IMG/VR virus record: IMGVR_UViG_3300011443_000011
Location: 1-44,270 of that record
DNA length: 44,270 bases
Origin: a virus
Strand: one strand, 5' to 3'
The first letter of the stretch is position 1, and each line of letters opens with the position of its first letter. The notes below the pieces were generated by a model. The model did no database searches. It saw only the letters and a program-made list of their open reading frames with translations, and was not told the origin of the DNA. Positions 5,516 to 43,742 of this stretch are shown here, piece after piece. The translations under genes and the position numbers were made by a program.

Positions 5516-5518
5516 TTT

Positions 5519-28902: not shown

Positions 28903-28911
28903 AAATAATCC

Positions 28912-29784: not shown

Positions 29785-29790
29785 GGAAAG

Positions 29791-30279
29791 TTAGGTGTGA
29801 GGTGTGAGGTGTGAGGTTTCAGGAGCCAGCGAGTCCGCTTGGGCGTCCCAATCGGGGTATAGGAGCATCCGAATGCGGGGGCTCACGGTGCGGCGGTGCT
29901 GGTATCCGCCAACCAGGCCGGCCACCAGGCACGCGATCTCGTTGATTTGGCCGGACCACACTTTGCTCGAGGGGAGAAGTCCATCCGGATCCATCTGGCT
30001 GGCATCCTGCCACGCGTTGATTGCAGCGTCGTGCAAGGGGATCAGATAAGCCGCGTGCTGGGCGAAGAAGGGATTGCGGGGCAAGACCACTAAAGTGAGG
30101 TGAGCCAGGTATCCGACTTCGACCGGGCCGTGATCGCCATCCTCGAGGTCATCCAGCATCCGGGCCACTTGCGCAATCAACCCGAGATAGGCCGCGGCTT
30201 GCTGATTCTCGCCCGCTGCAAGTGCAATGGCCTCACGCACGGCGGTCTGGTTCTGTTCGAGGTCGGCCTTGGTGCTCAT
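29791..30279 (-). CDS. DDxxD-motif helical protein, paralog 2 (162 aa)
   Basis: See 27813..28244. Its last 7 codons (SHLTPHT*) are encoded by the heptamer array. Confidence 0.55.
   Translation of the reverse strand: MSTKADLEQNQTAVREAIALAAGENQQAAAYLGLIAQVARMLDDLEDGDHGPVEVGYLAHLTLVVLPRNPFFAQHAAYLIPLHDAAINAWQDASQMDPDGLLPSSKVWSGQINEIACLVAGLVGGYQHRRTVSPRIRMLLYPDWDAQADSLAPETSHLTPHT
29793..29827. repeat. Tandem heptamer array (AGGTGTG variant), unpaired
   Basis: AGGTGTG x3, AGGTTTC, AGGAGCC. It ends 8 nt from ATG 29784 and contains the upstream stop (29791..29793). Confidence 0.9.
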
Positions 30280-31583
30280 GCGAAGACAGCGATCATGAGG
30301 TATTGGGGATCGTTGCGATTATTGCCCACAAGCGAGCGACAGCACACATCGAAGGATCCAGGAGATGGACTTAAGGTGGCCGGTGGGTCCGGATCCGCCC
30401 CGCCCACGTTGATAGAGCATACCTGGCTCTGCAAGTCAGCCTCGTCGTCGTAATAGCTACCCGTCACCTGGACGGCGTAGTTCTCGGTCAACATCGGGGT
30501 CTCAAAAAATATTCGGAAGTCGCCGTGGTCTCCAGAAGTGGTTCCCCTGGTACGGATAATGGCGGAGATATTCGAACTGCCCCGGATCGGATTGTTCGCC
30601 CAGTAAAAGAATGCGCGACCAGGCGTTGAGCTGGTGATATCCACCAACTGTGCTGTGTCGCCAGTGAGCGCCGCCGCTTTGGTCTTAAAGAGTCGGAACT
30701 GGGTGGAAGATCCCCCCAGCATGGAAACGTAGTAGGGCGTCCAGGCGGTGACTCCCGCGGCGGCCTGTGTCGGTACAAACCAGATGAATTCCCCGGTCTC
30801 GAGTCCAAGGGGCAGGGCGGTGCCTATGACGTTGGCATCCGCGTCCCAAAAGTTGGTGGCGACCGACGTCGAGGTTTCCGCGCCGTTGATATTGGCCCAG
30901 GCTTTCATTCCTCCAGCCTGCGCGACCAGGTCCTTGACCTTTAGCCGCACCTGCTGATTAGGGGCCGTCAGACTCACGTCCCTGACCAACACCTCGTCAT
31001 TGTTGATATCGATCTCAGTGCCCGGATTCGATTTGGCAATCAGGATGTTGGTGAACGAGGCCACCACATTGCCCACCTTCGCCTTTCGGTTCGGGTTGCT
31101 GCCAGCCAGGGCCGTCGCGTCCCAGAGCATCAGCATGTCGTTGCCCTCATCGATGCCACCGGCAGTGGTGATCTCGGTTTGGCCGCTGATTCCCTCGCGC
31201 AGCGTATTCTCTATCGTGGCTTTCTTGTTGGGCCCAGCAGCCTGGATGATCCATGCGAAATCCCCAAACTTGACATCGGAAATCGCGTCCAGGTGCGGCG
31301 TGGATAAGGCCAGGATCTCATTGATCGTTGCGCTGCGAAGTCCACCTGAACTGATATCCTCGAACATCATCAGGTCGAGGCCGTCAGGCGTTGCGCGAGT
31401 CAAGCCGGAGATCAGCCCTGGCGAGAGTTTATCCGAGGTGATTGACCCAGGCGGAATCAGCGCCGCGGAGATGGTTCCCTCGAGTTCAATAGTGGGCCGC
31501 CCCAGTTGATTGAGCTTGGTCTGGGTCAGTTTCTCGTTCTCGGAGAACTGATAACCGGGAATGACTCTGAGGCTGAGTGCCAT
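30276..31583 (-). CDS. Tail fibre/spike-like protein (435 aa)
   Basis: The N-terminus MALSLRVIPGYQFSENEKLTQTKLNQLGRP...IPPGSITSDKLSPG resembles tail-fibre N-terminal adaptor segments. Its position after the large tail protein supports the call. Confidence 0.5.
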   Translation of the reverse strand: MALSLRVIPGYQFSENEKLTQTKLNQLGRPTIELEGTISAALIPPGSITSDKLSPGLISGLTRATPDGLDLMMFEDISSGGLRSATINEILALSTPHLDAISDVKFGDFAWIIQAAGPNKKATIENTLREGISGQTEITTAGGIDEGNDMLMLWDATALAGSNPNRKAKVGNVVASFTNILIAKSNPGTEIDINNDEVLVRDVSLTAPNQQVRLKVKDLVAQAGGMKAWANINGAETSTSVATNFWDADANVIGTALPLGLETGEFIWFVPTQAAAGVTAWTPYYVSMLGGSSTQFRLFKTKAAALTGDTAQLVDITSSTPGRAFFYWANNPIRGSSNISAIIRTRGTTSGDHGDFRIFFETPMLTENYAVQVTGSYYDDEADLQSQVCSINVGGADPDPPATLSPSPGSFDVCCRSLVGNNRNDPQYLMIAVFA

Positions 31584-31586
31584 AAA

Positions 31587-34028
31587 TTAGACTTTGATCC
31601 CTGGCTGGCGGTTGGTTTCGGCCAGTTCAAGGGTGACCGCGCGCAACTCGAAGATGCCATCGGTGTTGGCAACCACGGCTTGATGCCATCGGCCGCGAGA
31701 GCGGACCATTCGCAATGGATGGTTGGCTTCCTGCTTGAGATCAATCGCCACTCCAGTGTCGAGATCGAATTGGGCTTGAAGCGAAGACAAAAGTAATGGC
31801 TGACCCGTACTCAACAGGAGTGGAGCGCGAGTCGATAGCAATAACGGATTTCCCGATGAGCCAAGGTATACCGAGTAATCCTGCCGATAGGGTGTATAGA
31901 AGTCGTGATTTGAATTGTCGGTTACCCAGCGGGGAACGCCCGAGGGCTTCTCATATACCCGCCGATCCCGGGTGCGTCCCGCAACCAGGCTGGATTCCTC
32001 AGAGACACCTTCGGTCCTGGTCGCAACGGAGTATTCAGGTTCCTGCGTCGCCAGGACCATCCGCGCAAAGAGACCAGCCTTGAAACCGGCTGAACCGGCG
32101 GTATAGCCGCGAGTCACGGCACTCACCACGATTGGCGCCAGGCCGAGCAAGTTGGGCGCGGCGGGGTCAAACACCTGGTCGCCCGCGTCGCTCTCCTCGT
32201 AGAGATTCAGGTAGCCATCGGCCGTGACGCAACAGAGGCGTTCAATACCGTCCACGGTCATCACGAACCATTCTTTGACCGCCAGGTCCGCGCCGCGCTG
32301 GAGCGGTTGCCAGGCCCCGGTCTGATAATCGAATACGATGACCCCGGTGTTCACATCCACCAGGACCCGTTGCAGCGTGCCGAGGGCCGGGAGATCGGTT
32401 TGGGTTTCCGTATTGCGATAAATCCCGAAGGTGCTCTTGCCGTCCCAGACCACATCGACCACTGCCTGCTCGTCGAAGTGTTCGCCGTTGCAGAGTAACA
32501 CCTCGTTTCCATTGGCTGCCGGCGACGGCCGCCAGCGAAACGTCTGGCCCGCGGAGGTCCAATTGAACGCCCCCACGTCGAGGAACTCGGTGAAGGGGAA
32601 GCCGGCAATCAAATTGGGCGAGACGGATTCGCTTGAATCGACTGGCGCTGCGACGTAAAGCGCATCGTTCCAGTAGGCCACCCGGATCGCATCGGCCAAG
32701 GTCCAATCGATTTGATCGATCCATTGCTGGATGGGATTCGAGAAGGCGGTCTCGGTGCCCTGGATCTTGTTCTGATCTGTTTGCCGCAGGGAGACGACGC
32801 CGCGGCGGGGTGAAACGAAGACAACGTCCTTGCCTACCTCGGCGGCCGCCCGGGGATTCACCACCCCATAATTGCGGATGATCATTTCCAGGGTCAGCGA
32901 GGTGAGGTCGCCGGTGACATTCGTGAGAAGACCCACGGTTGCGGATTTAAGCGCCAGCACCGCGCTGTCGCCGATCTTGACCAGGGCCTGAAGTTCATCG
33001 GCACTGCCCTGGTTGATCCGGAATTCGTTGTTGGGCGCGAACCGCCGATAATCCAGAACATATGTCGCCGCAACAAAGTCGCGCTTGGCGCCGTATCCGC
33101 CGCTGTCGAACTGCCCTCCCGGGATCCAGGAGGTCGTGACCATGAGACGATTGTTGACGTAGATCCCGTTGGTGCAATTGGGAAGGACGAGCCAATCGCG
33201 TTCCCATGCCTCATCGACACCTGGCTCAGAGCCAGCGTCAACATCCTCAACGTCCTCACTTATCTTCCAAGACTCAGAGTTAATCGACCACTCGAGTGTT
33301 GGCCCAACGCTGGTCATGTTGGATGGATAAATGATGAAGGAGTATTCATCCACCACCTGAACGGTGTACCGGCCGTCCTGGAAGCCCGCGGTCGTGCCGC
33401 GCACCTGGATATCAGAGCCGGTAATCAGGCCATGTGGCTCAGGCATCGTCACTGTGAGCTGGCCGCCGGATGAAGTGACATTACCGGTCACCCACGGCCC
33501 CCACGCCACCAGCGCTTCCTCCTCGTATGGGATCGTCGAATCCCATCGCTCAACGAGATCCTTGAATCCCTCATCGATCGATTCCATCACCAGCGGCGCC
33601 ATCTTCTCGCCGCGCAGCATGAACATCAGGTTGAACGCCTGAACGAACGCGACCTCGGTGATGATCTTGATTCCCTTCGGAAGCGGGACTCCCAGCGAGG
33701 TATTGTAAGGCCGGATCGCATGAACCCCTTCGTCCGCCGCGAGCAACAGCCACTCGATCCCATTGGGATCCTTGAACGGCTGCGGTTGACCTTGAATCGC
33801 GCCCCAGGGAAGGACCTTCTCGACATCGAGCCGATTCATCCAGGCCGGTTTCCATAAGCCCAGCCGGGTCACGGGCCGCCCCGTGCGGCATCGGAGATTC
33901 TGCCCGTCGGAGAGCAGGCCGGCCTGAAGCTGAGAGGGCTCAGCGTTCAGGTAGACACCCGACCAGGCGGCGTCGCCGTTGTCGATCGGCGTGTCGTCGC
34001 CAGGGGTATAGGTGCGGTAGCGGGGCAC
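31587..34028 (-). CDS. Large tail (nozzle/tubular-B-like) protein (813 aa)
   Basis: GTG start at 34028. The size and position are comparable to podovirus tail tubular protein B. No motif-level support. Confidence 0.45.
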   Translation of the reverse strand: MPRYRTYTPGDDTPIDNGDAAWSGVYLNAEPSQLQAGLLSDGQNLRCRTGRPVTRLGLWKPAWMNRLDVEKVLPWGAIQGQPQPFKDPNGIEWLLLAADEGVHAIRPYNTSLGVPLPKGIKIITEVAFVQAFNLMFMLRGEKMAPLVMESIDEGFKDLVERWDSTIPYEEEALVAWGPWVTGNVTSSGGQLTVTMPEPHGLITGSDIQVRGTTAGFQDGRYTVQVVDEYSFIIYPSNMTSVGPTLEWSINSESWKISEDVEDVDAGSEPGVDEAWERDWLVLPNCTNGIYVNNRLMVTTSWIPGGQFDSGGYGAKRDFVAATYVLDYRRFAPNNEFRINQGSADELQALVKIGDSAVLALKSATVGLLTNVTGDLTSLTLEMIIRNYGVVNPRAAAEVGKDVVFVSPRRGVVSLRQTDQNKIQGTETAFSNPIQQWIDQIDWTLADAIRVAYWNDALYVAAPVDSSESVSPNLIAGFPFTEFLDVGAFNWTSAGQTFRWRPSPAANGNEVLLCNGEHFDEQAVVDVVWDGKSTFGIYRNTETQTDLPALGTLQRVLVDVNTGVIVFDYQTGAWQPLQRGADLAVKEWFVMTVDGIERLCCVTADGYLNLYEESDAGDQVFDPAAPNLLGLAPIVVSAVTRGYTAGSAGFKAGLFARMVLATQEPEYSVATRTEGVSEESSLVAGRTRDRRVYEKPSGVPRWVTDNSNHDFYTPYRQDYSVYLGSSGNPLLLSTRAPLLLSTGQPLLLSSLQAQFDLDTGVAIDLKQEANHPLRMVRSRGRWHQAVVANTDGIFELRAVTLELAETNRQPGIKV

Positions 34029-34031
34029 GGG

Positions 34032-34197
34032 AGGTGTCGGGTGTCAGGTGTCAGGTTTCAGGGGGGCACAAACGGAGGTGTCAGGTGTCGGGTGTCAGGT
34101 GTTAGGGGGGCAGAGGCGGCACCACTCGGATTTCTACGCACAGGTGATTGGTTTCGGTGACCCCTGGCACCTGAAACCCGACACCTGACACCTCTCT
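34032..34197. repeat. Three-arm heptamer-array element: two direct arrays plus one inverted array
   Basis: Arm a 34032..34066: AGGTGTC GGGTGTC AGGTGTC AGGTTTC AGGGGGG. Arm b 34076..34110: AGGTGTC AGGTGTC GGGTGTC AGGTGTT AGGGGGG. Arm c 34163..34197: CCTGGCA CCTGAAA CCCGACA CCTGACA CCTCTCT. Arms b and c pair over 33 positions (34076..34108 with 34161..34193): 30 WC, 2 G:T, 1 G:A. Confidence 0.9.
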
Positions 34198-34401
34198 GCC
34201 CAACGTATTCGGCGCCATATTGGCTACAGGGATTCGCGAGACCCTGGTGAAGTGAGCGAACCCAATAATAAAGCCGTCCGTGGCGTCGTCCTTGAATTGG
34301 CCCAGGCCAAAAATCTGGGTGTGAGAAACCCGCGAAGAATGAGGCGCATGCTGGCATCCGGCCATCAAGGCCGCTGCGACCAGTGGAATTATGCGTTTCA
34401 C
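34102..34401 (-). CDS. Lipoprotein (99 aa)
   Basis: MKRIIPLVAAALMAGC has a lipobox LMAG/C. The C-terminal ~30 codons run through heptamer arm c and the loop, and stop inside arm b, so the true 3' end is uncertain. Confidence 0.55.
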   Translation of the reverse strand: MKRIIPLVAAALMAGCQHAPHSSRVSHTQIFGLGQFKDDATDGFIIGFAHFTRVSRIPVANMAPNTLGREVSGVGFQVPGVTETNHLCVEIRVVPPLPP

Positions 34402-34420
34402 TCACGACCATTCCCAAATC

Positions 34421-34864
34421 CTATGCGCTCCCGGTCACCCGGTCCCCGGTAATTGTCAAAGTCACTCGGTCCCCGCTCTGTCGAAAGGAAACGCCGACCT
34501 GCCGCAGCACCATATCGAAATTCCCAGGCGCTGGTGGCGGCGCTTGCGTCTCGCACGGGTTTGGGACCGGATCGCCATCCTCGTCGAGAATCACCTCCCA
34601 GCTCGATCGCAGTGATGGCAGGATGACTCTCCGGTACCATCGCAGCCCGGCATTGATGGTTAATTGTGAAAACTGCCCGGTGCTTTCCGCCTGTTGGCGA
34701 TCGGCCTTGATGATCTCGAGCACGTCCTGTTTGCGCTGGCCCTCGAGCGTTTCCTGCCATTGCGGAGGTGTATGCGTATCGTCGGTGAAATACGCGACCA
34801 CCTCGCACGCGGGATTGGCTGGGTCCGCACCGTAAACGAGCCATGCATAAGCTTCGGTTCTCAT
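34421..34864 (-). CDS. Hypothetical structural-module protein (147 aa)
   Basis: ATG at 34864, preceded by a heptamer array. Confidence 0.5.
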   Translation of the reverse strand: MRTEAYAWLVYGADPANPACEVVAYFTDDTHTPPQWQETLEGQRKQDVLEIIKADRQQAESTGQFSQLTINAGLRWYRRVILPSLRSSWEVILDEDGDPVPNPCETQAPPPAPGNFDMVLRQVGVSFRQSGDRVTLTITGDRVTGSA

Positions 34865-34868
34865 AAGC

Positions 34869-34964
34869 AGGTTTCAGGTTTCAGGTGTCGGGTGTCAGGG
34901 AGGCATAGGCGGAGGGCGGGTCCCGCGTCTGCGGGAGGCCTTCCCTGACACCTGACACCTCATA
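34869..34964. repeat. Heptamer-array hairpin
   Basis: Left arm: AGGTTTC AGGTTTC AGGTGTC GGGTGTC AGGGAGG (34869..34903). Right arm: ...CCTGACA CCTGACA CCTCATA (34937..34964). The stem pairs 34883..34903 with 34940..34960 (21 bp: 19 WC, 2 G:T). The upstream stop (34960..34962) is at the stem base. Confidence 0.9.
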
Positions 34965-35547
34965 CAAGCGCCTCGACCACCCCGTATTGGGGATCGTGAT
35001 ACGTGTCGTTGAGATCGCGCACCAGGGCGCCGATAAAGCCGCCATCCTTGAAGGCCTGGAGGTACTTGTTGAAGTTGGCCTTGTCGCTTACCTGGACCAC
35101 CTGCGGGATATCCACCCCCTCCGGTTGCGGCCCCAGGTTCACCAGGGCATAGGAGCGCTGCATGGCGGTCCGGTCCGGCTGGTACACGTCATTGATCAGC
35201 CAGAGCGGGGTGTCGATCTGGATGCCATCCGTCCCGGGAAACTTGATGTTGATAAACCGGGCGAAAGAGAAGCCGATCCCAGTCATGCCAGGCCGGTACT
35301 CTTCGCCGGCAAGATGGGTCGTCGTTGAGGGGTAAACCCACCACGCAGGCGGTGTCTGGCGCCAATAGGTCTCCTCGGTGTCCAGGTTATAGATGATCTG
35401 GCGGCCGCCGCCCCATGGGATCATCAGGGCAGGAAATTTCGGTTCCCAAGTCGGCAGAATGTCCTGGAATGCGATCGGCGGATCCGGCCAGTCGAGAGTG
35501 ATCCTGCGTTCTCGCCGGCGACGACGGATATATGGATTGAGTTTCAT
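34960..35547 (-). CDS. Hypothetical protein (195 aa), possibly a tail tubular-A-like adaptor
   Basis: Only its size and position support a tail role. No lysozyme or peptidase motif seen. Confidence 0.35.
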   Translation of the reverse strand: MKLNPYIRRRRRERRITLDWPDPPIAFQDILPTWEPKFPALMIPWGGGRQIIYNLDTEETYWRQTPPAWWVYPSTTTHLAGEEYRPGMTGIGFSFARFINIKFPGTDGIQIDTPLWLINDVYQPDRTAMQRSYALVNLGPQPEGVDIPQVVQVSDKANFNKYLQAFKDGGFIGALVRDLNDTYHDPQYGVVEALV

Positions 35548-35590
35548 AATAGTTAAAATGGATTGCTGCCGCGTTTGCCTCCGCCGCCCG

Positions 35591-35791
35591 TTAGCCGAGT
35601 TGTATTAGTTTGGTCAGGAGATACACCATCACCAACACCACAAGGACGACCTTCACCCAGTAGTTAAAGATCGGTTGCTTGATTGCGAAGTCGATCAGTG
35701 CCCACAGCCCACACGCCACCGCACAGACGATAATCACACGGACCATCACCTTCAGCATTTCCGCGTCGGTCATTGCTAATATTGTTTTCAT
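35591..35791 (-). CDS. Holin-like two-TM protein (66 aa)
   Basis: ATG 35791 is 7 nt after the fibre stop. In MKTILAMTDAEMLKVMVRVIIVCAVACGLWALIDFAIKQPIFNYWVKVVLVVLVMVYLLTKLIQLG I see two hydrophobic helices and a charged C-terminus. The 132-aa ORF-track version overlaps the fibre gene and is discarded. Confidence 0.5.
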   Translation of the reverse strand: MKTILAMTDAEMLKVMVRVIIVCAVACGLWALIDFAIKQPIFNYWVKVVLVVLVMVYLLTKLIQLG

Positions 35792-35798
35792 GGCTAGT

Positions 35799-38700
35799 TC
35801 ATTGTAATCGCAACCACATCCTGGCCGGATCGATTGAGGAACGGACGGAAATCGCGCCGGAGACGTTCGGGTCGTAGGCCGCGAGGTAATAATCCGCATG
35901 GCCCCGATCGCCGACCGTGAGATTTCCAAGGGTGGAGACCTTCTTGAAGGTGATGGGAACGTCCGCGAGGTCGGCGAAGGTATCGACAACGCCAGCGAAT
36001 GAGATCGAAGTCACTTTCCGGCTGACCGAGTTCGTGACCGCGAATCCCTCCGACATTGCAAGCGCAGTGCGGTAGCCTGAATTGACCATCACCCATGCGC
36101 CTGGCAGTCCGGGTCCGCTCCAGTTACGGTAGAAAACCAAGTCGACTGCGGTGCCTTCCTTGAGGGTGTTTGCGGGCAGTTCTCCGCCATCCGGAAGGAA
36201 AATAGAACGCTCATACGTGCGATCAGCGCCGGATGGGGGATTGGTCGGAAAGTTGAGTGACACCCCGCCGGTTCCGGTATTTGCCCAACCACCTGGGGCG
36301 TTGGGCCGGCGCACACGGCCGACAAGTCGCGTGCCTTCAGGTGGCTCAGGCAAGGCACCCGTATACGCGGGATTCAACGTTCCGACCCCGAACCACAATG
36401 TCGTCGGATTGACTGCCGTGGTTGTGTCCGTCAAAGTCGATTCGAATTGCAGCGGGCTGCCCGCCGTTCCGGCGAGCGACGCAAACTCCACCGACCCATC
36501 CACATTATTGAGGGTGAGCACCTGGCCGGTTGCCACCGCGCCCGCGCCCTGGTTCACCTTGGGCGTCTTCAGGCGCAGCACCGATTGTCCCTTCAACTCA
36601 AGCTCGCCGGAGGTTTCGATCTTGGCTCTCGAGATCGCGTTGACATCGAACGTTCCAAGGGAATTCATCGCCATGTTGCCGAATCCCTGGAAGGTCAGCG
36701 TCTGGTTGTTCATGGTCACCGTCCGAGGGCCACTGAGTGTGCCGTTGGCGTTGTAGATGCTCGTATCGGGTGGCAGGGCGGCATACTCGACCCTGCCGAC
36801 ATCCTGGTCCATGAGCGTGAGCACCTGGCCATTGATCGCGGTCCCATCCGAAATCTTGGGTGTGAAAATGTCGAGCTTGGTCCGGCCTTCCAGGTGCAAG
36901 GTGCCACTGGTTTGCAACGTGCCATCCGCGGTCGAATTCAGATTGTAACTAGTGAGGGCCGTGCCGAACAGCCGGCCAGGCCCTTGGAAATTCAAATTCA
37001 CCCCGCTCATGGTGACCGTGCGATTGCCTGTCAAGGCGCCGTCCGAGTTGTATAGATTGACTGTTGGGACCGTGTTAAACTCCACGGCGCCATTGCTCTG
37101 GTCAATCAATTGCAGGAATTGACCTTGCCGGCCGGCGTATAAAGGAGTCCGAAGCATCAAACGGGTGGGTGCGGCAATGGTGGTGGTGGCGGAGGACACC
37201 CCGAAATCGTTCAGGCCAGTGAAAAGCAAGCTGTTGTTGTTGCCGCTCAGCGTGCGATGCCCGGTTAAAGCCGCGTCATGCGTGTAAATGCTGACATCCG
37301 GACCGGCCACGCTCAAGGGTTGGTAATCTGCCGTGCCGTCAGCGGCGAGGGTGAGCACCTGGCCGGCCATCAAGGCGGGAGTTGAGGCGATCAAGCGTGG
37401 CGTGTTGAGGTAGAATTGCTTGGTGGACGTTAGCCGAATCCACTCGGACGCGAACACGTCGTTGGTCTTGGCGGACAAGACGATTCGGTTCGGGCCGTTC
37501 ACCTGGAAACGATCGCCTGTGCCCGTAAAATCGAGGTTGAATGTGCTCTGGTTAACTTGCCGATTGCCGGTCAACACTCCGTCAGCAGTGTAGATATTTA
37601 CCGCATTGGTCGGTAACGGCAGCGGGGCAAATTCAACCCGGCCACTCGACGATTCTTGAAGCGTCAACACGTACCCATTGGCGACGCCGCCGTTGGTAAG
37701 CACCTTGGGTGTCGCGATACTGACGCTCCCCTTGCCCCAAATCGCCGCGTTCGTGCTGTCCACAAAGAACTGATTGAGACCGACCATGTTCAGGCTGTTA
37801 CCGGCGCCCGTGATGGTCCGAGTGCCGGTCAATGTGCCGCTCGTCGTGTATATGTTGGTTGGGAAATACCAATCGCACTCGCCATCCGCTGCCGTCAGCG
37901 TGAGGACCATTCCAATGGTTGCCGCGCCCCTGGGCTCTGGCGCCTGGTTATCTCTTTGAAAAAGGTCGAGCATTTCAGTGGGCAATTGCCCGCTCTCCCT
38001 GAGCAGCGTGAAGATCCGCGGGGTCGCCAGCTTGAACTTGCTTGCCCCCGTAAGCTGCAGCAGCGTCGAACCGTAGACGTCGTTCGTCACCCCATAGAAT
38101 CGCCCTCGCCCGAAATTGATGGCGTCGAAATAACCAGTCGTACCAAACGCGACATTTCCCGAGCCCGAAAACGAGAGTGTCCTTGGACTTGGACCTACCG
38201 TGACTGTCCGATCCGCCGTAATCGTCCCGCTCGCGGTGTAAATGCTGACATCCGTGGGAAAGGAGATCGATTTGTACTCCGCGGTCCCGGTGGCGGGATT
38301 CATCAGTGTCAACACCTGGTTGGAGACCGCCGTGGAGCCGGCGACATTGGGCGTCTTCAGGTTAAACTCCAGCGCGCCGCTGATCGTTGAGGTACGGCCG
38401 CTCGAGCTGAAATGATTCAGATTGGTCAGCGACAGCTCCCGGAAATTGCCCTCAACAATGCGATTGCCGCCCAAAATGCCATTCGTGTTATAGAGGTTAT
38501 AGGCCGGGTGAAAGTCCGCGAGGCCAGTGCCGGAATTCACCATGGTTAATACCTGCCCATCAGCCGCGCCTGCGCTGAATCGCGGGGTAAATAACTTGAA
38601 CCGCTGCCCAGCGCCCACCTGGTATTCCTCGGTTGCGTATTGGACATTCGTGATGGAGGACATCCCGATATACTTGATAGCCTCCACCGTGAATTGCCCG

Positions 38701-40391
38701 CCGGGATCGATAAATGAAAGCCGGTTGGTCCCAAGACGAAACGAAAGCTGATTCGTGCCAAGATGAACCTGTCGCGGACCGGTGAGTGTTCCGTCCGAGG
38801 TGTAAATGTTCACCGAGGAGGTCACCGGCAACGGCCGCCAGTCCACAAGGCCGCCCGTGTCCAGCAAGGTGAGGACCTGGTTGGTGGCTGCGGTTCCACC
38901 CACGATGCTGGGTGTGCGCATTCTATATTCCACCGACGCCCCGGAGATATTCGTCAGGATTCCCCGGGTCTCATAAAGGCTGAAGTTGGTGAACGTGAGG
39001 TTCCTGCTAGCGCCGGATACGGTTCGATTATCTGCCAGGGCGCCATTGGCGGTGTAGAGATTGGAGGAGACCACAAACTCTGAACGGCCCGTTGCCGCAT
39101 CGAGCAGGGTCAAGACATGCCCGTTGGTTGCCGTGGCGGCGACCACATTGGGAGTCGCCAGGCCGAGTGAACTGGAGCCGTACAGCAAGGAATTCTGGGC
39201 CGCCGCGCCGAAGTTCAAGAGGTTCGTGAAGGTCAATCTCCGGGAGGCCCCTTGCAGCGTTCGGTCACTCGAGATCGTGCCATCGGAATTGTAGATATTG
39301 AGCGTTGGCTGCGCGACTGCCGGCAAAAATTCCGCCATTCCCGTCGTCGCATTCGCCAAGGTCAGCACGTGGCCAACCTGGGCGCTGGCATTGCGAACAT
39401 TGGGCGTACGGACGTTAAAGAAGTTGGTGGCGACGATGAGCGCCTCGCCGCCGCGCATCGCCGCCGCGGGCGATTGGATCTCAACAATGGGCGCCGTCAT
39501 AAGCAACCCACTGCCCGCATTGGTCGATATGAACTGGAGAACGCGATTAGTGAGGTCAACAACCCGGTTGCCAGTTAATGCTCCGTTGCTGTTGTAGATA
39601 TTCGTCCCGCTCGCTCCGGCTGGGAGCGGGGCGAATTCAACCACGCCATTGACCCCGCTCAAGGTGAGCACCTGGCCCACCTGGGAGCCGCCCGCGACAA
39701 CGTTCGGGGTTCGAATGCTCAGGAGTCCAGGGGACTCAATGATGGTGTTGCCCGCGCTCTTCAGGCTGGCGAATTGGCTCGCATCCACTGAAAATGTATC
39801 GACTGGCACAAAGGTGACCGGGCCACCCCTGAAAGTGAGTGACTTGCCGTTGAGCGTGACGATCCGGTTGCTCGCGATCGTTCCATCCCCTGTATAGAGC
39901 GTCGTAGCGGGGGTTGGGGTTCTGAATTCCGCCTCGCCCGTGCCAACATTGATCAACGTCAGAGCGTCACCAGCCTTGGCACTGGCAGCGCTCACGAAGG
40001 GAGTGCGGAGATTGAAATGCTGACCAGGGGACAAAGTGATATCACTCGGGGTCGCCAGGCTGATTAAACCATTGGCCGCCACCGTAAAGCTGCTGATGTT
40101 CGAGGAAGCGATGCTCCCAGGGCCGCGCCAAAAAAGAGGGTTGGCGCCGAGATCAACTATCCGGGGGCCATTCAGGGTGCCATCGGAGGTATAAAAGGTT
40201 GGCCCGCTGGCGATCGGCAGCATCCGCCAGGCCCAGGGCGCGGTGCTCGAGGCGATCAAGGTGCTCGTATTGGTGCCGCTCCAGGTATTGGTGAGGGCGT
40301 ACATTGCCGCCGTCTCCTGGACGGTGACGGTTGCCGTTCGGTTGCCGCCTGGGGTGGGATCCGCGACTTGAAACGGGTTGGCCGCCACCAT
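35799..40391 (-). CDS. Giant modular fibre/adhesin-like protein (1530 aa from ATG 40391; 1584 aa if ATG 40553)
   Basis: 13 tandem modules averaging ~96 aa span aa 120-1367 of the long ORF. Each has [IL]Y[TN]xxGxLxxxRxV...LxFxG followed by TP[NRK]vxxxxxxxGqVLTLxxxxxGxxEF. A unique 217-aa C-terminal domain follows. The start is ambiguous (see findings). Confidence 0.7.
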   Translation of the reverse strand: MVAANPFQVADPTPGGNRTATVTVQETAAMYALTNTWSGTNTSTLIASSTAPWAWRMLPIASGPTFYTSDGTLNGPRIVDLGANPLFWRGPGSIASSNISSFTVAANGLISLATPSDITLSPGQHFNLRTPFVSAASAKAGDALTLINVGTGEAEFRTPTPATTLYTGDGTIASNRIVTLNGKSLTFRGGPVTFVPVDTFSVDASQFASLKSAGNTIIESPGLLSIRTPNVVAGGSQVGQVLTLSGVNGVVEFAPLPAGASGTNIYNSNGALTGNRVVDLTNRVLQFISTNAGSGLLMTAPIVEIQSPAAAMRGGEALIVATNFFNVRTPNVRNASAQVGHVLTLANATTGMAEFLPAVAQPTLNIYNSDGTISSDRTLQGASRRLTFTNLLNFGAAAQNSLLYGSSSLGLATPNVVAATATNGHVLTLLDAATGRSEFVVSSNLYTANGALADNRTVSGASRNLTFTNFSLYETRGILTNISGASVEYRMRTPSIVGGTAATNQVLTLLDTGGLVDWRPLPVTSSVNIYTSDGTLTGPRQVHLGTNQLSFRLGTNRLSFIDPGGQFTVEAIKYIGMSSITNVQYATEEYQVGAGQRFKLFTPRFSAGAADGQVLTMVNSGTGLADFHPAYNLYNTNGILGGNRIVEGNFRELSLTNLNHFSSSGRTSTISGALEFNLKTPNVAGSTAVSNQVLTLMNPATGTAEYKSISFPTDVSIYTASGTITADRTVTVGPSPRTLSFSGSGNVAFGTTGYFDAINFGRGRFYGVTNDVYGSTLLQLTGASKFKLATPRIFTLLRESGQLPTEMLDLFQRDNQAPEPRGAATIGMVLTLTAADGECDWYFPTNIYTTSGTLTGTRTITGAGNSLNMVGLNQFFVDSTNAAIWGKGSVSIATPKVLTNGGVANGYVLTLQESSSGRVEFAPLPLPTNAVNIYTADGVLTGNRQVNQSTFNLDFTGTGDRFQVNGPNRIVLSAKTNDVFASEWIRLTSTKQFYLNTPRLIASTPALMAGQVLTLAADGTADYQPLSVAGPDVSIYTHDAALTGHRTLSGNNNSLLFTGLNDFGVSSATTTIAAPTRLMLRTPLYAGRQGQFLQLIDQSNGAVEFNTVPTVNLYNSDGALTGNRTVTMSGVNLNFQGPGRLFGTALTSYNLNSTADGTLQTSGTLHLEGRTKLDIFTPKISDGTAINGQVLTLMDQDVGRVEYAALPPDTSIYNANGTLSGPRTVTMNNQTLTFQGFGNMAMNSLGTFDVNAISRAKIETSGELELKGQSVLRLKTPKVNQGAGAVATGQVLTLNNVDGSVEFASLAGTAGSPLQFESTLTDTTTAVNPTTLWFGVGTLNPAYTGALPEPPEGTRLVGRVRRPNAPGGWANTGTGGVSLNFPTNPPSGADRTYERSIFLPDGGELPANTLKEGTAVDLVFYRNWSGPGLPGAWVMVNSGYRTALAMSEGFAVTNSVSRKVTSISFAGVVDTFADLADVPITFKKVSTLGNLTVGDRGHADYYLAAYDPNVSGAISVRSSIDPARMWLRLQ

Positions 40392-40433
40392 CTGGCTGAT
40401 CGTGATGAACGACTTGACGGTCGGCTGGGCAAC

Positions 40434-40529
40434 TAGGGAAGAGGGACTAGAGGCGAGGGACGAGAGCAGAAAGAACCAAAGGAAACGCAAGAGTCTTCCC
40501 TGACCCCTCGCCCCTAATCCCTCGCCCCT
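40434..40529. repeat. Inverted pair of heptamer arrays (NAGGGNN type) upstream of or within the fibre 5' end
   Basis: Left arm 40434..40468: TAGGGAA GAGGGAC TAGAGGC GAGGGAC GAGAGCA. Right arm 40495..40529: CTTCCCT GACCCCT CGCCCCT AATCCCT CGCCCCT. On the mRNA the 5' arm reads AGGGGCGAGGGAUUAGGGGCGAGGGGUCAGGGAAG. Confidence 0.85.
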
Positions 40530-40534
40530 AACTA

Positions 40535-40942
40535 CTACATCCACTTGTACCATACTAAGCCTGTGAAAACGTTGGGCCGGATGCGGTCACCGTTGTTGTC
40601 CTGGTCAGTGGAGACGACCGTGACGTAGATCCCGGCCTGGTTGTCGAAAGGGATGGTGCCACCCAGACAGAAACAGAGCTGTTTGGCGGCGGATGGCGTG
40701 AAACTCCGCATCTCAGCCTTGTTCGTCGCGGTGAACAACTGGACCTGGGCGATCAGGTCGCCCAAAGGGATCCGGAAATCCTGGGCGCCACCCGTGGTGA
40801 GCTTGCGGACGTAGGTGGCGTAATCCTGAAGGTTGAGCCCTGCCGGATTGAGCGCCGGCAACTCAGTCAATTCCTGGCCGGGACCCTCGGTAGCAGCCAG
40901 GGCGGCCGCGGATCCATTCGCTCGTGTGGCGCGGTTGCTCAT
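40535..40942 (-). CDS. Hypothetical structural protein (135 aa)
   Basis: ATGA overlap with the upstream gene. No motif recognised. Confidence 0.5.
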   Translation of the reverse strand: MSNRATRANGSAAALAATEGPGQELTELPALNPAGLNLQDYATYVRKLTTGGAQDFRIPLGDLIAQVQLFTATNKAEMRSFTPSAAKQLCFCLGGTIPFDNQAGIYVTVVSTDQDNNGDRIRPNVFTGLVWYKWM

Positions 40943-41301
40943 TGGATATAGCTCACGACGACCGCATCTGCGCCGGTTCCAGTCCCGGCAAGATCCTTCA
41001 GGTTGAACTTCGTGCCGGGCGCCGGCGCGTAGGTCACCTTCCCGCCAGGGGTCACGACATCCATGATCTTGGCAACACCTTCCACGTAAGGCCCGATGCC
41101 GACATTGGCCACGTTGTTCGTGGGCACAGCGGTTGGAGAGAGAGCCTTGTAGCCATAAAAGCTCGCCTCGGTGACCCAGAGATCCGTCGCGCTTATCGGG
41201 GTGGTGACTCCAGCCGGCAAGGGGACTGGCCCGAGGGTCTTTGCCACCTTGGCGATGCTCGCCCCGATCAGGTTGGCAGCCGCGAATGAGTTAATGCCCA
41301 T
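40939..41301 (-). CDS. Small beta-rich structural protein, MGINS paralog B (120 aa)
   Basis: MGINSFAAANLIGASIAK... parallels MGINSYTVVNLITSAAAK... in the adjacent gene. The shared C-terminal pattern is PGGKV.Y.P.PGT.F.L. Confidence 0.55.
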   Translation of the reverse strand: MGINSFAAANLIGASIAKVAKTLGPVPLPAGVTTPISATDLWVTEASFYGYKALSPTAVPTNNVANVGIGPYVEGVAKIMDVVTPGGKVTYAPAPGTKFNLKDLAGTGTGADAVVVSYIQ

Positions 41302-41303
41302 AG

Positions 41304-41657
41304 TTATGCCAGGTACTTGAAATAGACCTTGTCCCCGGTGGTCCCGAGGATGGTGAGATTGAAGAGGTCCAACGCGGTGCCGCCTGGCGGCTTGAACACG
41401 ATCTTTCCTCCCGCCGGAAGCGTCTCAAAGAGTCCAGAGCCCGCGGCATCGACCAAACACGCGCCAGCGTTGGCAACCGGGATCGTGTTCATCCCGATGG
41501 ATGAATAGCCGTAAATCTCCACCTGGGTCACCAGGCGCGAGGTGGCGCTCAGGCGCACCGGGGTGCCCGTGGTGAGATTGACCGGGCCCTCGGCCACGTA
41601 CTGCTTGGCCGCGGCGGACGTGATCAAATTGACTACGGTATAAGAATTGATTCCCAT
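41304..41657 (-). CDS. Small beta-rich structural protein, MGINS paralog A (117 aa)
   Basis: Tandem paralog of 40939..41301. It is preceded by a heptamer array. Confidence 0.55.
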   Translation of the reverse strand: MGINSYTVVNLITSAAAKQYVAEGPVNLTTGTPVRLSATSRLVTQVEIYGYSSIGMNTIPVANAGACLVDAAGSGLFETLPAGGKIVFKPPGGTALDLFNLTILGTTGDKVYFKYLA

Positions 41658-41665
41658 TTCGGAGC

Positions 41666-41709
41666 AGGTGGCAGGTGGTAGGTGTCGGGTTTCAGGGGGG
41701 CTGGCACCT
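41666..41709. repeat. Tandem heptamer array (AGGTGNN type) with a short inverted tail
   Basis: AGGTGGC AGGTGGT AGGTGTC GGGTTTC AGGGGGG followed by CTGGCACCT. It lies between stop 41709 and ATG 41657. Confidence 0.85.
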
Positions 41710-42746
41710 CATCTTGTCGCCATGGTCCAGGGTTCCTGCTGGCGTTGTTGCCGTTCTATCTGGTCGAATTCAAGTTGCAGGTGCACGAATGCCTTGGAGT
41801 TCGCCGCCAGTGCTTTGTCGTTCTGGCCATCGAGTTCGAGCCAATCCCCGTGTGTTGCCCAACCGAGGTAATTGCCGAAAATGCTGGGGATCTCGATTCG
41901 GCGCCATTTGGTCGGATCCACGGCTGGCGATTCGGCTTCCCCCGCGAACTCGATGCAGTCGTAGAAATCGCCGGTGCCCGCATTGTCCGGCCAGGTGAAA
42001 TAGACCTGATCGCCCACCTCGTAGGTTGCCTCCGCATCCCACGGATCGCCCTCGAGGACCGGGCAAACCATCCGGTACCGGAACCAGGCGCTGCCCGGAT
42101 CGCCCTCGACCCGCACCGCATCATCGACGAGCAGGAATTCCAGCCGGTATTGGTTCAGCTCCGGCGATCGCACCGAGGCGAGCCCGAGAACCTCCGCCAT
42201 CGGCTTCTGGAAACCATCGTCCAGGGGAAAGGCCGGATCCCATGCTGGCAGCGGGTAGAAGGACTGCTCTGAGTTGATATCGCCATAGAAAGCGCCATCG
42301 ACCTTGCAGTAGTAGATGATACCGTCCTCGGCATTTACCACCCGATCGCCCACCTGGTATTGGGTGACAGGATCGTTAGTTGCAGCGACGGGGTAGGTGC
42401 CCAGTGGCGCCCATTGAAATGGGTTGTCCTTGGGCTCATCATCGCCTGGATCCACCGCAGCCACGCAGACGTAACAGCGGTCGCTCACGTGGTCATAGAC
42501 CTGAGCGCCGGGCTCGTAGTCGGCGGCATAATCAAAGCGATCTTTCAGCCGGGCGCGCCGGTCCAGGACTACCAGTGTCGGCCAGGGGAACATCCGCCAG
42601 GCTGTCTCGAGCCGATCCGACATGATCGAGCGAACCATCCGGAAATCACTGATCGAGAGGGAATCCTCCCCAGCCCGATGCGACCACGGCTGCCCGTGAT
42701 ACGAGCAAGCGCTGCGGAAAATCCGGCTGGCGGGGATGCTTCGCAT
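41709..42746 (-). CDS. Structural protein with three CBM5/12-like Y-x-x-G-D-x-V...Y-x-C...P...W repeats (345 aa)
   Basis: The three repeats are YEPGAQVYDHVSDRCYVCVA...PFQW, YQVGDRVVNAEDGIIYYCKV...PLPAW and YEVGDQVYFTWPDNAGTGDFYDCIE...PTKW. Confidence 0.5.
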   Translation of the reverse strand: MRSIPASRIFRSACSYHGQPWSHRAGEDSLSISDFRMVRSIMSDRLETAWRMFPWPTLVVLDRRARLKDRFDYAADYEPGAQVYDHVSDRCYVCVAAVDPGDDEPKDNPFQWAPLGTYPVAATNDPVTQYQVGDRVVNAEDGIIYYCKVDGAFYGDINSEQSFYPLPAWDPAFPLDDGFQKPMAEVLGLASVRSPELNQYRLEFLLVDDAVRVEGDPGSAWFRYRMVCPVLEGDPWDAEATYEVGDQVYFTWPDNAGTGDFYDCIEFAGEAESPAVDPTKWRRIEIPSIFGNYLGWATHGDWLELDGQNDKALAANSKAFVHLQLEFDQIERQQRQQEPWTMATR

Positions 42747-42747
42747 C

Positions 42748-42848
42748 AGGTGTTAGGTGTTAGGTGTCGGGTGTCAGGGGAACACAGGGAGGAGGGTGGG
42801 CCTTCCGGCCTTACCTGACACCCGACACCTGACACCTGACACCTGGTT
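42748..42848. repeat. Heptamer-array hairpin (best example)
   Basis: Left arm: AGGTGTT AGGTGTT AGGTGTC GGGTGTC AGGGGAA. Right arm: CCTGACA CCCGACA CCTGACA CCTGACA CCTGGTT. The stem pairs 42748..42778 with 42814..42844 (31 bp: 29 WC, 2 G:T) with a 35-nt loop. The stop at 42847..42849 and ATG 42746 flank the stem base. Confidence 0.95.
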
Positions 42849-43161
42849 ATTTCCACGGTTGCACCTCGGGGTTATCTTTCACGAACCGCTTCCAATTACC
42901 CTTGTCCTTGAAGAAATGCGGATCGGTCTGGAGCCACCGAAAATAAGTCCGCGCATCAATGATCCCAGTGAGCGTAAGCTCCCCCATCTGACGGTTCGCG
43001 ACATTCCGATACGGCGCAGCAGCAGCCACCATGCGGCGTTTGGTGTCCGCACGTTCGCGCGCGATCTTGCGCTGAAGCCACGAGCCAAATCGAAGTTCAT
43101 TCTCAATCGTCCGGCGGCCCGAACCGCTCAGCCCGCCAAACTTTGGTACGATGATTTGCAC
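42847..43161 (-). CDS. Hypothetical protein (104 aa)
   Basis: ATG at 43161. The composition looks coding. No motif recognised. Confidence 0.5.
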   Translation of the reverse strand: MQIIVPKFGGLSGSGRRTIENELRFGSWLQRKIARERADTKRRMVAAAAPYRNVANRQMGELTLTGIIDARTYFRWLQTDPHFFKDKGNWKRFVKDNPEVQPWK

Positions 43162-43174
43162 CCCTGCGGGAATT

Positions 43175-43215
43175 CGGGAGGGACCGGAGCAAAACCACTA
43201 AACCGATCCCTCCCG
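43175..43215. repeat. Simple intergenic hairpin (9-bp perfect stem)
   Basis: CGGGAGGGA (43175..43183) pairs with TCCCTCCCG (43207..43215) around a 23-nt loop. No U tract on either strand. Confidence 0.7.
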
Positions 43216-43233
43216 TGTACCGATATGCGCGGT

Positions 43234-43704
43234 TTATCCTTGGACTTTCGCTAGATCCGCTGCGCGAATGACATTCACGAAGACCAGGATCTCGCCGGCC
43301 GTCGCCAGGCTTAGATTTCCGGTCGAACCAATGGTGATCGTGAGAAACTTCGCTGTGCCGTCCGAAACGAACGGGCCTCCGCCAGTGGCAGCCGGGCCGA
43401 TTGCCCCAAGGCTGCGGCCGGTGACCGGTGTGCCGCTCGCCACGAGCGCGTCAGCCGTTCCAGTGACACCCACCGAGATCGTTGGGGCGCTGAGCCCGGC
43501 GCCTGCTGGAGCCGTCTTGGTATAAACATGGGCGAGCGGATACGCCACCGTATCACCCGCCAGCAACGTCAGCGGTTGAAGCGTGGCCGTAGCTGCGGCG
43601 ACGTTGAAGTCGTTCTCAGCCGGCACCGATGAATAGCCAACGCGAATGCAATGCGAGAACCCGGTCTGGGCTCGCTCGCTTTCTGTAAGTGCAGATATTC
43701 TCAT
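43234..43704 (-). CDS. Small beta-rich protein downstream of capsid (156 aa), possible decoration protein
   Basis: It sits right after the capsid gene. It is Gly/Ala/Thr-rich, and its C-terminal pattern FLTITIGSTGNLSLATAGEILVFVNV resembles the MGINS paralogs. Confidence 0.45.
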   Translation of the reverse strand: MRISALTESERAQTGFSHCIRVGYSSVPAENDFNVAAATATLQPLTLLAGDTVAYPLAHVYTKTAPAGAGLSAPTISVGVTGTADALVASGTPVTGRSLGAIGPAATGGGPFVSDGTAKFLTITIGSTGNLSLATAGEILVFVNVIRAADLAKVQG

Positions 43705-43714
43705 ATATTTGAAT

Positions 43715-43742
43715 AGGTTTCAGGTTCCGGGTGTCAGGTGAT
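43715..43742. repeat. Tandem heptamer array, unpaired
   Basis: AGGTTTC AGGTTCC GGGTGTC AGGTGAT. It contains the capsid stop (43734..43736) and lies 10 nt from ATG 43704. Confidence 0.85.

Follow-up and report, generated by a model that had tools for sequence, protein, structure and literature searches.

The stretch of DNA analysed here, referred to as the window, is the 44,270-nt IMG/VR record IMGVR_UViG_3300011443_000011, and the elements under study are tandem arrays of 7-nt units that lie, singly or as inverted pairs, at the junctions between its genes. The record contained the genome of an uncultivated phage of about 44.1 kb, complete and circularly assembled; the 123-nt overlap of the window ends (1-733 / 44148-44270) indicated a circular or terminally redundant assembly. 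A second assembly (Logan, SRR6448461, 44177 nt) was 100% identical to the window over the 6.2 kb compared. The G+C content was about 60%, and nearly all genes were on the minus strand. The gene of the SU10-type major capsid protein (PF17236 SU10_MCP) was split across the window ends, with its ATG at 570-568 on the minus strand; it was recognized through L274 and relatives, which carry PF17236 SU10_MCP. The nearest capsid protein of an isolate was that of Phage C75C1 (37% identity), and INPHARED megablast with 18 kb of the window gave no match. Pfam and PHROGs scans of 30 proteins returned few domain matches (DnaB helicase, IstB-like ATPase, RadC, RyR, and LPD38) and left most window proteins without an assigned family; no candidate RNA-binding protein, RNase or transposase was among the 30. 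No tRNA genes were found in the window.

Arrays were called with Tandem Repeats Finder (TRF), and 100 dinucleotide-preserving shuffles of the window served as the null. The gene map of the window, which was approximate and of our own construction, had 39 junctions and 7.4% non-coding sequence. TRF called 14 non-overlapping period-7 arrays, plus two scored at period 14; the shuffles averaged 1.1 and never exceeded 4. Neighbouring periods were at background (period 8, 2 vs 1.4; period 10, 3 vs 1.7; period 11, 0 vs 1.3), and periods 9, 12, and 18 were raised, chiefly from in-frame coding repeats. Ten of the 16 TRF period-7 rows fell wholly within the non-coding fraction and five others lay at gene ends; the remaining row was a weak 2.4-copy GGGCGGC repeat (17267-17283), about 220 codons into a 243-codon gene.

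A preliminary description of this DNA had listed ten arrays, and all ten were present. TRF returned nine of them, as the rows 29793-29817, 34032-34062, 34076-34106, 34868-34899, 41664-41684, and 42746-42778 and the inverted rows 34158-34193, 34944-34960, and 42813-42845; the array at 43715-43740 was too weak for TRF and was visible by eye (CACCTGA CACCCGG AACCTGA AACCT). The same description had taken the arrays for a junction device and not for random low complexity. Their non-random character was borne out by the excess over the shuffled controls, by their strict polarity, and by their recurrence at the same junctions in relatives. It had also placed all of them in or across intergenic gaps of the minus-strand late operon. 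They were indeed bound to junctions, but some were translated, and additional sites (hairpins 670-576 and 40534-40433; single arrays 5553-5516 and 5207-5173) showed that they are not limited to that operon. Ten of the 39 junctions had TRF arrays; the script flagged nine and scored the 40.5-kb hairpin as an overlap. The array-free junctions comprised nine ATGA overlaps, nine spacers of 2-18 nt, seven longer spacers, and four other overlaps, and thus were not mostly ATGA overlaps, as had been claimed. Co-directional spacers of 25-100 nt in this genome were nearly all composed of such arrays. An assembly artefact was ruled out, because two independent assemblies were identical and the same architecture was found in relatives from other samples.

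The sites in the window were as follows, with sequences as read on the mRNA and hairpins lettered A to E:

576-670, minus strand: hairpin E; 5' G-rich arm CUAGGGUCUAGAGAUGAGAGACUAGGGAUUAGGGAAG at 670-634, 3' C-rich arm (CCCUCNN)n at 620-576; stop TAG (662-660) of the 398-aa gene in the 5' arm; 3' arm 5 nt before the capsid ATG 570-568; TRF period 7 at 578-608, minus strand.
5173-5207, minus strand: single G-poor array AACUCCU AACUCAU AACUUCC AACUCAU AACUCC; TRF period 7/14; stop TAA (5200-5198) inside; end 4 nt before ATG 5168.
5516-5553, minus strand: single G-poor array (CUCAUAA)n; TRF period 7, 5.3 copies; stop TAA (5547-5545) inside; adjoins ATG 5515.
29793-29823, minus strand: single array CCUGAAA (CCUCACA)x3 CCU; TRF 100% matches; stop TAA (29793-29791); ends 8 nt before ATG 29784.
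34032-34060, minus strand: proximal G-poor array UGAAACC UGACACC UGACACC CGACACC U; ends 3 nt before GTG 34028 of the 813-aa gene.
34075-34196, minus strand: hairpin C; 5' G-rich arm 34196-34157; 3' arm 34104-34075, opened by stop TAA 34104-34102.
34868-34962, minus strand: hairpin B; 5' arm GAGGUGUCAGGUGUCAGGGAAGG, opened by stop TGA (34962-34960) of the 195-aa gene; 3' arm CCUCCCUGACACCCGACACCUGAAACCUGAAACCUG, ending 3 nt before ATG 34864, with its last ~25 nt unpaired.
40433-40534, minus strand: hairpin D; 5' arm UAGUUAGGGGCGAGGGAUUAGGGGCGAGGGGUCAGGGAAG at 40534-40495, 3' arm CUCUCGUCCCUCGCCUCUAGUCCCUCUUCCCUAG at 40466-40433; directly after stop TAG (40537-40535) of the 135-aa gene and inside the frame from ATG 40553.
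41664-41696, minus strand: single G-poor array CCUGAAA CCCGACA CCUACCA CCUGCCA CCUGC, between stop TGA 41711-41709 and ATG 41657; array end 6 nt from the ATG; a single vestigial G-rich unit, GGUGCCAG, after the stop.
42747-42846, minus strand: hairpin A; insert of 100 nt that exactly fills the gap from stop TAA 42849-42847 to ATG 42746-42744; 5' arm (AGGUGUC)n at 42846-42813, loop 42812-42779, 3' arm (GACACCY/UAACACC)n at 42778-42747.
43715-43740, minus strand: weak single array CACCUGA CACCCGG AACCUGA AACCU; capsid stop TGA (43736-43734) inside; ends 11 nt before ATG 43704.

Two forms could be distinguished on the mRNA, each making up about half of the sites. The single form consisted of 3-5 G-poor units (CACCUGA, CACCUCA, CUCAUAA, and variants) that ended 0-11 nt before a start codon and frequently included the stop codon of the upstream gene. 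The paired form consisted of a G-rich arm beginning at or containing the upstream stop, a 30-60-nt loop, and a complementary G-poor arm running to the next start; the upstream stop codon was at or within the base of the 5' arm in all five window hairpins. Arrays ended 0-11 nt before starts at 10 sites. The preliminary description had put the distance at 1-10 nt in every case, which was right for most arrays; the one at 34076, the distal of two, lay 44 nt upstream, and the one at 43715 was borderline (11 nt). Within the units of the window, ACC (GGU on the other arm) was invariant and its neighbours varied. The hairpins preceded the capsid gene and three large function-unassigned genes in one gene block, and hairpins at non-orthologous junctions partly shared the loop core AAGRCCG..CGG (z 2.5-4.7).

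The leaders of this podovirus-like phage were SD-less, that is, it uses no Shine-Dalgarno (SD) sites: SD-like 4-mers were seen in 10 of 42 leaders, where chance predicts 10.0, and thus were not enriched. Phage leaders in general were poor in G, with a G fraction of 0.18 at -10..-1 vs 0.30 in coding sequence, and array leaders were the extreme cases of this pattern. Over the segment -35..+15, array leaders had a mean minimum free energy (MFE) of -2.6 kcal/mol, compared with -8.3 at the remaining starts of the phage and -12.9 in random 50-mers (Mann-Whitney p = 5e-5). The leader of the single array at 29.8 kb was unfolded (-2.3 kcal/mol, z +1.7), and the same segment at array 5173-5207 had an MFE between -0.8 and -5.2 kcal/mol. 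The 3' arms deviated from perfect complementarity by added G-to-A, C-to-A or C-to-U changes, which made them still more G-poor and A/U-rich. Eight of 10 hairpins would be more stable as antisense RNA; message-strand stem stability is thus not what is maximized, and avoidance of G beside the start codon seems to take precedence over it. Optimization of the sense-strand RNA, judged from G.U pairs vs C.A mismatches, was also tried as a test, and the outcome was the opposite of that expected in 8 of 10 stems; the test therefore cannot be used to argue that the stems are selected at the RNA level.

The main unit literally contains AGGUG and CACCU, and it is widespread. The preliminary description had accordingly read the 5' arms as repeated SD sequences and the 3' arms as anti-SD mimics, which would sequester or present ribosome-binding sites. 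However, the same phage also uses CUCAUAA and CCCUCGC-type units, and other units found at the same or equivalent junctions have no such similarity. SD-like 4-mers were not enriched in the other G-rich units (0.18 vs 0.22 in shuffled units), and the phage makes no use of SD sites. A distance of 60-100 nt separates the SD-like arm from the start downstream of it, and the arm on the start side cannot pair with 16S rRNA. Because the units differ at the same junctions and there is no SD enrichment, the resemblance is incidental, and a role in presenting or hiding ribosome-binding sites is most improbable. Register shifting, also suggested at first, and phase variation explained nothing that needed explaining; the two assemblies were identical over the part compared.

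Folding showed very stable stems of 25-33 bp with periodic mismatches, as the preliminary description had anticipated. The MFE was -66.4 kcal/mol for hairpin A, -51.0 for B, -73.1 for C, -60.4 for D, and -43.4 for E. Compared with dinucleotide shuffles, the z-scores were -8.4 (A), -5.8 (B), -5.1 (D), and -4.4 (E), with 0 of 200 shuffles as stable in each case; for hairpin C, z was -4.9 against mononucleotide shuffles. A search of the whole window against Rfam 15 at the gathering score gave 0 matches. A promoter and terminator scan gave no call at the arrays, and terminator-like sites were fewer in the window than in its shuffled versions. The 3' arms ran into start codons and not into T-runs, no terminator-like site was found at the arm pairs, and the hairpins are thus not intrinsic terminators.

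Stems of 25-33 bp are long enough for bacterial RNase III, and T7 RNase III sites and the repetitive extragenic palindromic (REP) elements of enterobacteria are known as stable stem-loops between co-transcribed genes. The paired arrays could be T7-like processing or mRNA-stabilizing hairpins, in which a cut would separate the cistrons, leave a protective 3' stem, and free the G-poor leader. Stem energies of -43 to -73 kcal/mol, the location of hairpins ahead of the capsid gene and of three large genes, and the lack of canonical intrinsic terminators at the hairpin sites speak for this. Single arrays, about half of the sites, cannot be RNase III substrates, however; cleavage of hairpin D within its open reading frame (ORF) would destroy the message, and 8 of 10 stems are weaker in sense than in antisense. 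Processing as the purpose of the paired arrays is therefore unlikely. The tandem heptamers, the order of G-arm and C-arm, and the arm adjoining the next start distinguish the hairpins of this phage from T7 sites and REPs. REPs are dispersed, multi-copy, extragenic elements mobilized as hairpins; the window showed no RAYT-like transposase.

The window was compared with ten related genomes or fragments (L001, L163-L168, L276-L279), whose 345-aa proteins were about 50-67% identical to its own. In relatives with 55-70% protein identity, arrays recurred at orthologous junctions with different units or were absent; their presence, length, and unit all differed among these genomes. The units in relatives were GAGUGAC/GUCACUC, GAGGGGC/CUCGUCC, GAAGGCU/AGCCUUC, CUCAACU, and CUCUCAA. 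The window itself used several units. All sites in the window and in its relatives kept the same polarity, with the G-poor strand as the sense strand beside the start codon.

At the junction between the 104-aa and 345-aa genes, the hairpin measured 100 nt in the window (hairpin A) and 101 nt in L168 (GAGUGAC/GUCACUC), and eight other relatives had TAATG, ATGA or a 1-nt junction. Comparison with these empty junctions showed no visible target duplication at the clean insertion of hairpin A. The ancestral state at this junction was an overlapping stop-start, which is consistent with coupling having been kept across the insertion. Of 39 stem pairs compared between the window and L168, 20 were unchanged, 12 had changed on both sides and still paired, one had changed on one side, and six were lost. 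As the arms are repeats, the 12 double-sided pairs reduce to about two substitutions per unit carried through both arms. An exact look-up of the 104-aa protein gave no match.

After the 345-aa gene, arrays were present in the window, in L165 as (CUCAACU)n, and in L168 as CUCUCGC/CUCUAAU, and the other seven relatives had spacers of 1-14 nt (1-8 nt in L163, L166, and L001). Before the 1584-aa gene, a hairpin was found in six of the nine genomes covering the junction (window, L165, L168, L278, L279, and L001, the last cut by the contig end), and its units belonged to three families, GAGGGGC, GAGUGAC, and GAAGGCU. After the capsid gene, all relatives had a spacer of 17-40 nt; in most of them it was visibly poor in G, and about half showed a heptamer period (L163, L168, L278, and partly L276). 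In L168, a GAGUGAU/GUCACUC hairpin preceded the capsid gene at the same junction as hairpin E, and a GAGUGAC/ACUCAUC hairpin preceded the 815-aa gene, the orthologue of the 813-aa gene. Strain-level copy-number polymorphism was not seen, the only second assembly being identical over the part compared.

The closest relative alternated along the structural module (window 26511-44270): it was L168 for the 156-aa and 104-aa proteins and L165 for the 345-aa, 135-aa, and 813-aa proteins, and two of the switch points coincided with array junctions. This may reflect mosaicism at the arrays. At the DNA level, the boundary repeats might then be recombination linkers for the exchange of modules between co-infecting phages. 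But the identity differences are small and may reflect variation in rate, and one switch point is an ATGA overlap. In addition, the differing units of relatives would not recombine, and the sense-strand polarity is left unexplained. We therefore give recombination linkers hardly any probability.

Some arrays were translated. The array at 29793-29823 supplies the final ~9 codons of the 162-aa gene (ETSHLTPHT), a variable protein tail. The 5' arm of hairpin C (34158-34196) and its loop are read as a C-terminal extension of about 25 residues of the 99-aa lipoprotein, whose homologues in L163, L165, and L168 terminate earlier. The frame from ATG 40553, which overlaps the end of the upstream gene, is open through both arms of hairpin D and specifies the 1584-aa protein's signal peptide. 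The charged n-region of this peptide (Arg/Gly/Glu) comes from the G-rich arm, its hydrophobic core from the U-rich loop, and its c-region (Ser/Pro/Leu) from the C-rich arm. The array-free L166 encodes a plain signal peptide at this position (MAHLKRLAAAFVLLCAPVLALA|QPAVKSF). The frame through the hairpin was open in the window, L165, L168, L001, and L278, across three unit families; in L168, the single unit whose TGA would be in frame is mutated, and the hairpin loops of L165 and L278 had no in-frame ATG, GTG or TTG. The in-ORF hairpin at the 1584-aa gene was located as follows:

40433-40553, window.
12140-12270, L165.
12159-12275, L168.
4560-4700, L278.

The start of the 345-aa gene (41709-42746) and of its homologues in L277-L279 was placed about 40 codons too late by automatic gene calls in several genomes (304-310 aa), despite a conserved N-terminus, and the start of the 1584-aa gene was similarly ambiguous. 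The late automatic starts of the 345-aa gene are likely due to these phages being without SD sites. Gene callers mis-start genes adjoining arrays, and the annotation of such phages needs care.

Beyond this phage, the exact 20-mer (GACACCT)x3 was found in 41 IMG/VR contigs and in more than 120 GTDB species genomes, which belonged to Acidobacteriota, Planctomycetota, Desulfobacterota, Chloroflexota, Gemmatimonadota, Verrucomicrobiota, and other phyla. The fetched loci, 270 in all, had no detectable similarity to the window beyond the arrays, so that no prophage or host link could be drawn. A first set of 161 unrelated loci contained 431 period-7 arrays with 128 distinct units. Orientation was counted with heuristic gene calls, namely ORFs of at least 100 aa: ORF starts followed the C-rich reading of an array in 103 cases vs 39 for the G-rich reading, and stops were at the G-rich reading in 107 cases vs 50. 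An independent set of 105 other viral loci, picked with other units, had 583 arrays in 884 kb and replicated this polarity (starts, 158 vs 75; stops, 169 vs 76).

The order of arms was very strongly polarized. In unit-complementary inverted pairs, the G-rich arm came first in 60 vs 3 pairs in the 161 loci (within 150 nt) and in 90 vs 3 pairs in the 105 loci; combined, the order 5' G-rich/3' C-rich was found in 150 vs 6. This order reads alike from both strands and is therefore independent of the crude gene calls. It also held for pairs that the heuristic calls placed between convergent genes (16 vs 0). Six asymmetric elements from outside the phage were checked, and in five of them the arm rich in A (variant GAAACCU) faced the start codon on the sense strand.

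Four contigs of Desulfobacterota metagenome-assembled genomes (MAGs) carried copies of one element (L052 1589-1658, L094 2835-2919, L105 3825-3908, and L075 3850-3919), built as (AGGTGTC)n, a AAAAAGAAACATA-like loop, and (CTGAAAC)n, with loop and arms common to different MAGs. The loops common to these copies point to a dispersed, possibly mobile element family. Some viral contigs of 10 kb (e.g., L172) had six arrays of one unit.

HutP, which reads three UAG triplets spaced 4 nt apart (a period of 7 nt), and TRAP are precedents for another reading. The arrays might be multi-site platforms for a sequence-specific, probably oligomeric RNA- or single-stranded DNA-binding protein of host or phage, which would co-regulate the genes with arrays. 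The homogeneity of units within a genome and their difference between genomes are in keeping with this, as are the invariant ACC/GGU with variable neighbours in the units of the window and the uneven use of units in IMG/VR, where the exact three-unit 20-mer occurred in 74 contigs for GACCACT, 41 for GACACCT, 30 for GTCACTC, and 2 for the permutation GCACATC. Moreover, S1, Csp, and CsrA have been proposed as partners of TAACTGA repeats (PMC4679880), and a partner has been proposed in Nostoc (10.1101/2022.06.06.494920). Against it, one phage holds three unrelated units, no candidate protein was found, and the spread of one unit across many phyla argues against a lineage-specific factor. A binding platform is accordingly very doubtful.

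Taken together, these observations led us to a tentative explanation, the best supported of those considered, to which we give slightly less than an even chance: the arrays would act as structure-free, SD-free leaders, and the stem would couple downstream initiation to upstream termination or serve processing. For the parts played by ribosomes, nucleases, and selection, we infer the following steps. A G-poor array at a start would offer an open, SD-free ribosome landing site in a transcript of 60% G+C. Where a G-rich partner stands at the upstream stop, as at about half of the sites, a 25-33-bp stem would form with stop and start at its base, and the closed stem would shut the start region. 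A ribosome ending the upstream gene could then melt the base of the stem and open the start (translational coupling); alternatively, a nuclease specific for double-stranded RNA could open it by cutting the stem. RNase III processing is compatible with this leader and coupling model and not exclusive of it. The rapid turnover of arrays might come from 7-nt slippage and from the copying of whole hairpins between junctions, and selection would retain arrays solely where genes end and solely when so oriented that the leader is G-poor.

Several points weigh against the leader and coupling model. Most genes of this phage, and most relatives at most junctions, are without arrays, so that any benefit must be dispensable. 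A closed 30-bp stem at a start codon should inhibit initiation, and coupling is the proposed reconciliation. The low structure of the leaders comes partly from their G-poor composition and is not by itself proof of selection. Compensatory changes in the arms can also arise by arm-to-arm template switching in palindromic DNA, with no selection at the RNA level. The pairs between convergent genes have no start codon beside them, so that leader selection cannot be the whole cause of the arm order. Finally, the coding position of hairpin D and the two translated arms are no less in keeping with a repeat that is tolerated at any place where the sequence is free to vary.

The strong rival is that the arrays are functionless self-renewing repeats, arising by 7-nt slippage and/or as a palindrome copied between junctions and between host and phage, which persist where they are harmless; their orientation and position would then reflect purifying selection only. 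A tolerated repeat or mobile palindrome explains the gain and loss of arrays, the insertions into coding ends, and the shared loops equally well as the leader and coupling model does. The presence or absence and the unit turnover among close relatives agree with it, as do the clean 100-nt insertion into the ancestral TAATG/ATGA junction, the loop cores AAGRCCG..CGG at non-orthologous junctions, the loops common to elements of different Desulfobacterota MAGs, and the arrays in coding ends with the frame left open. The in-frame 9-nt repeats in phage genes are also such as would be expected in a slippage-prone genome, and a slippage origin of heptamers has been proposed (Mrazek et al. 2007, in the account given in PMC4679880). 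What it does not account for is the arm order of 150 vs 6, the recurrence of arrays at the same junctions with different units, the near-perfect stems at about 60% protein identity with their 12 double-sided changes, and the systematic A/U enrichment of the 3' arms. Polarity, recurrence, stem retention, and A/U enrichment require selection for something or an undiscovered directional mechanism, and functionless repeats as the full account are for this reason somewhat unlikely.

A broader proposal joins parts of both: G-rich-first heptamer palindromes would form one cross-phylum class of self-renewing elements that colonize the stop-start junctions of phages and bacteria and serve as an SD-independent coupling or initiation device, with stop and start at the stem base, arms co-evolving by concerted compensatory turnover, and a unit perhaps matched to a host factor. 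We consider this proposal speculative and quite unlikely as a whole. If it were true, phages would be users and possible vectors of the element.

Heptamer repeats of this kind have been described in bacteria. In Xanthomonas and Nostoc, G-rich heptamers (GGGAATC / GGGGA(C/T)T) are located within 50 bp downstream of stop codons when on the coding strand, or upstream of ORFs when on the non-coding strand; they can overlap stops, vary among close relatives, and are sometimes inverted, and their function was left open (Rehm et al. 2015, PMC4692102). The arrays of the window resemble them in the 7-nt unit, the usual number of about four copies, the mainly non-coding position, mostly between co-oriented genes, the polarity, the overlap with stop codons, the variation of length and sequence at the same junctions, and the possible stem-loops. 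They differ in their phage setting and in that AGGUGUC and GAGUGAC have no G-runs; UUAUGAG has none either, and G-runs were found only in the GAGGGGC-type arms (hairpins D and E), so that the window arrays are not in the G-quadruplex subclass. Paired arms placed precisely at stop and start codons, and the statistic on arm order, were analysed in the present work and not in PMC4692102.

In marine Beggiatoaceae, cyanobacteria, and Bacteroidetes, TAACTGA repeats lie directly upstream of SD-less starts, and a role in translation, with binding of S1, Csp or CsrA, has been proposed for them (MacGregor 2015, PMC4679880). The likeness extends to 2-6 copies near starts, one orientation, the rarity of SD sites, stop triplets within the unit, and a scattered distribution. 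Unlike the TAACTGA repeats, which have one dominant unit and one indirect repeat, the present arrays have several units per genome and many across relatives, differ from TAACTGA in sequence, and form inverted pairs at about half of the sites. A Nostoc preprint (10.1101/2022.06.06.494920) describes effects of heptamer repeats close to start codons and proposes a binding partner. According to the account in PMC4679880, heptanucleotides are the commonest class of longer simple sequence repeats (SSRs) in many prokaryotes, with polymerase slippage proposed as their source, and repeats within genes have units that are multiples of three (Mrazek et al. 2007).

The window arrays belong to this prokaryotic class of heptanucleotide short tandemly repeated repetitive (STRR) sequences and long SSRs; the phage setting is new and the kind of element is known. 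The cyanobacterial STRRs are said to be intergenic heptanucleotide tandem repeats, reportedly described by Mazel in 1990. Intergenic heptamers, together with coding repeats in multiples of three (9 nt in this phage), are common to the window and that class. The STRR and long-SSR surveys are descriptive and concern cellular genomes; unlike the present work, they were not found to contain the stop/start architecture or a phage example. The preliminary description knew of no account of this arrangement in a phage. For bacteria it has been published (PMC4692102, PMC4679880), and for phage genomes no description of heptamer arrays was found in the literature.

In many bacteria, heptanucleotides outnumber all other classes of longer simple repeats; they have been on record since 1990 without an established function. 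The present phage family offers a handle on them, as its arrays can be placed relative to stop and start and its orthologous junctions occur with arrays, without them, and with other units. The arm-order rule (150 vs 6) and the compensatory turnover of units are regularities that any mechanism must explain. Together with the ancestral overlapping stop-start of one junction and the much lower structure of array leaders than of other starts, these comparisons turn a vague label of possible regulation into testable predictions on SD-independent initiation and translational coupling.

Other features of the genome were also recorded. The 72-nt spacer at 43162-43233, between the 156-aa and 104-aa genes, contained a non-heptamer hairpin with the G-rich arm first (GGGAGGGAUCGG...CCGGUCCCUCCC). 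This spacer measured 100-138 nt in every relative, and the spacers of the relatives gave no alignment and no consensus fold.

Repeats of 12 nt of the AATCAGTTGTT type were present at 15914-16010 and 20834-20868. The regions that hold them (15534-16402 and 20834-21469) are the largest two non-coding stretches and flank a short plus-strand gene block with a RadC-like gene and others; the repeats may be operators or an origin.

Coding repeats of 9 nt and 18 nt (AAGUCNGAC) occurred in minus-strand genes at 1551-1602, 10056-10096, and 13459-13483. In the three encoded proteins, which are unrelated, they produce series of (K/R/G/T)SD tripeptides, for example EKSDGSDTSDASDKSD (398-aa protein), RSDQSDKSDRS (767-aa protein), and RSDKSDKSDPSDE (DnaB helicase). 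These repeats look like an in-frame counterpart of the 7-nt arrays.

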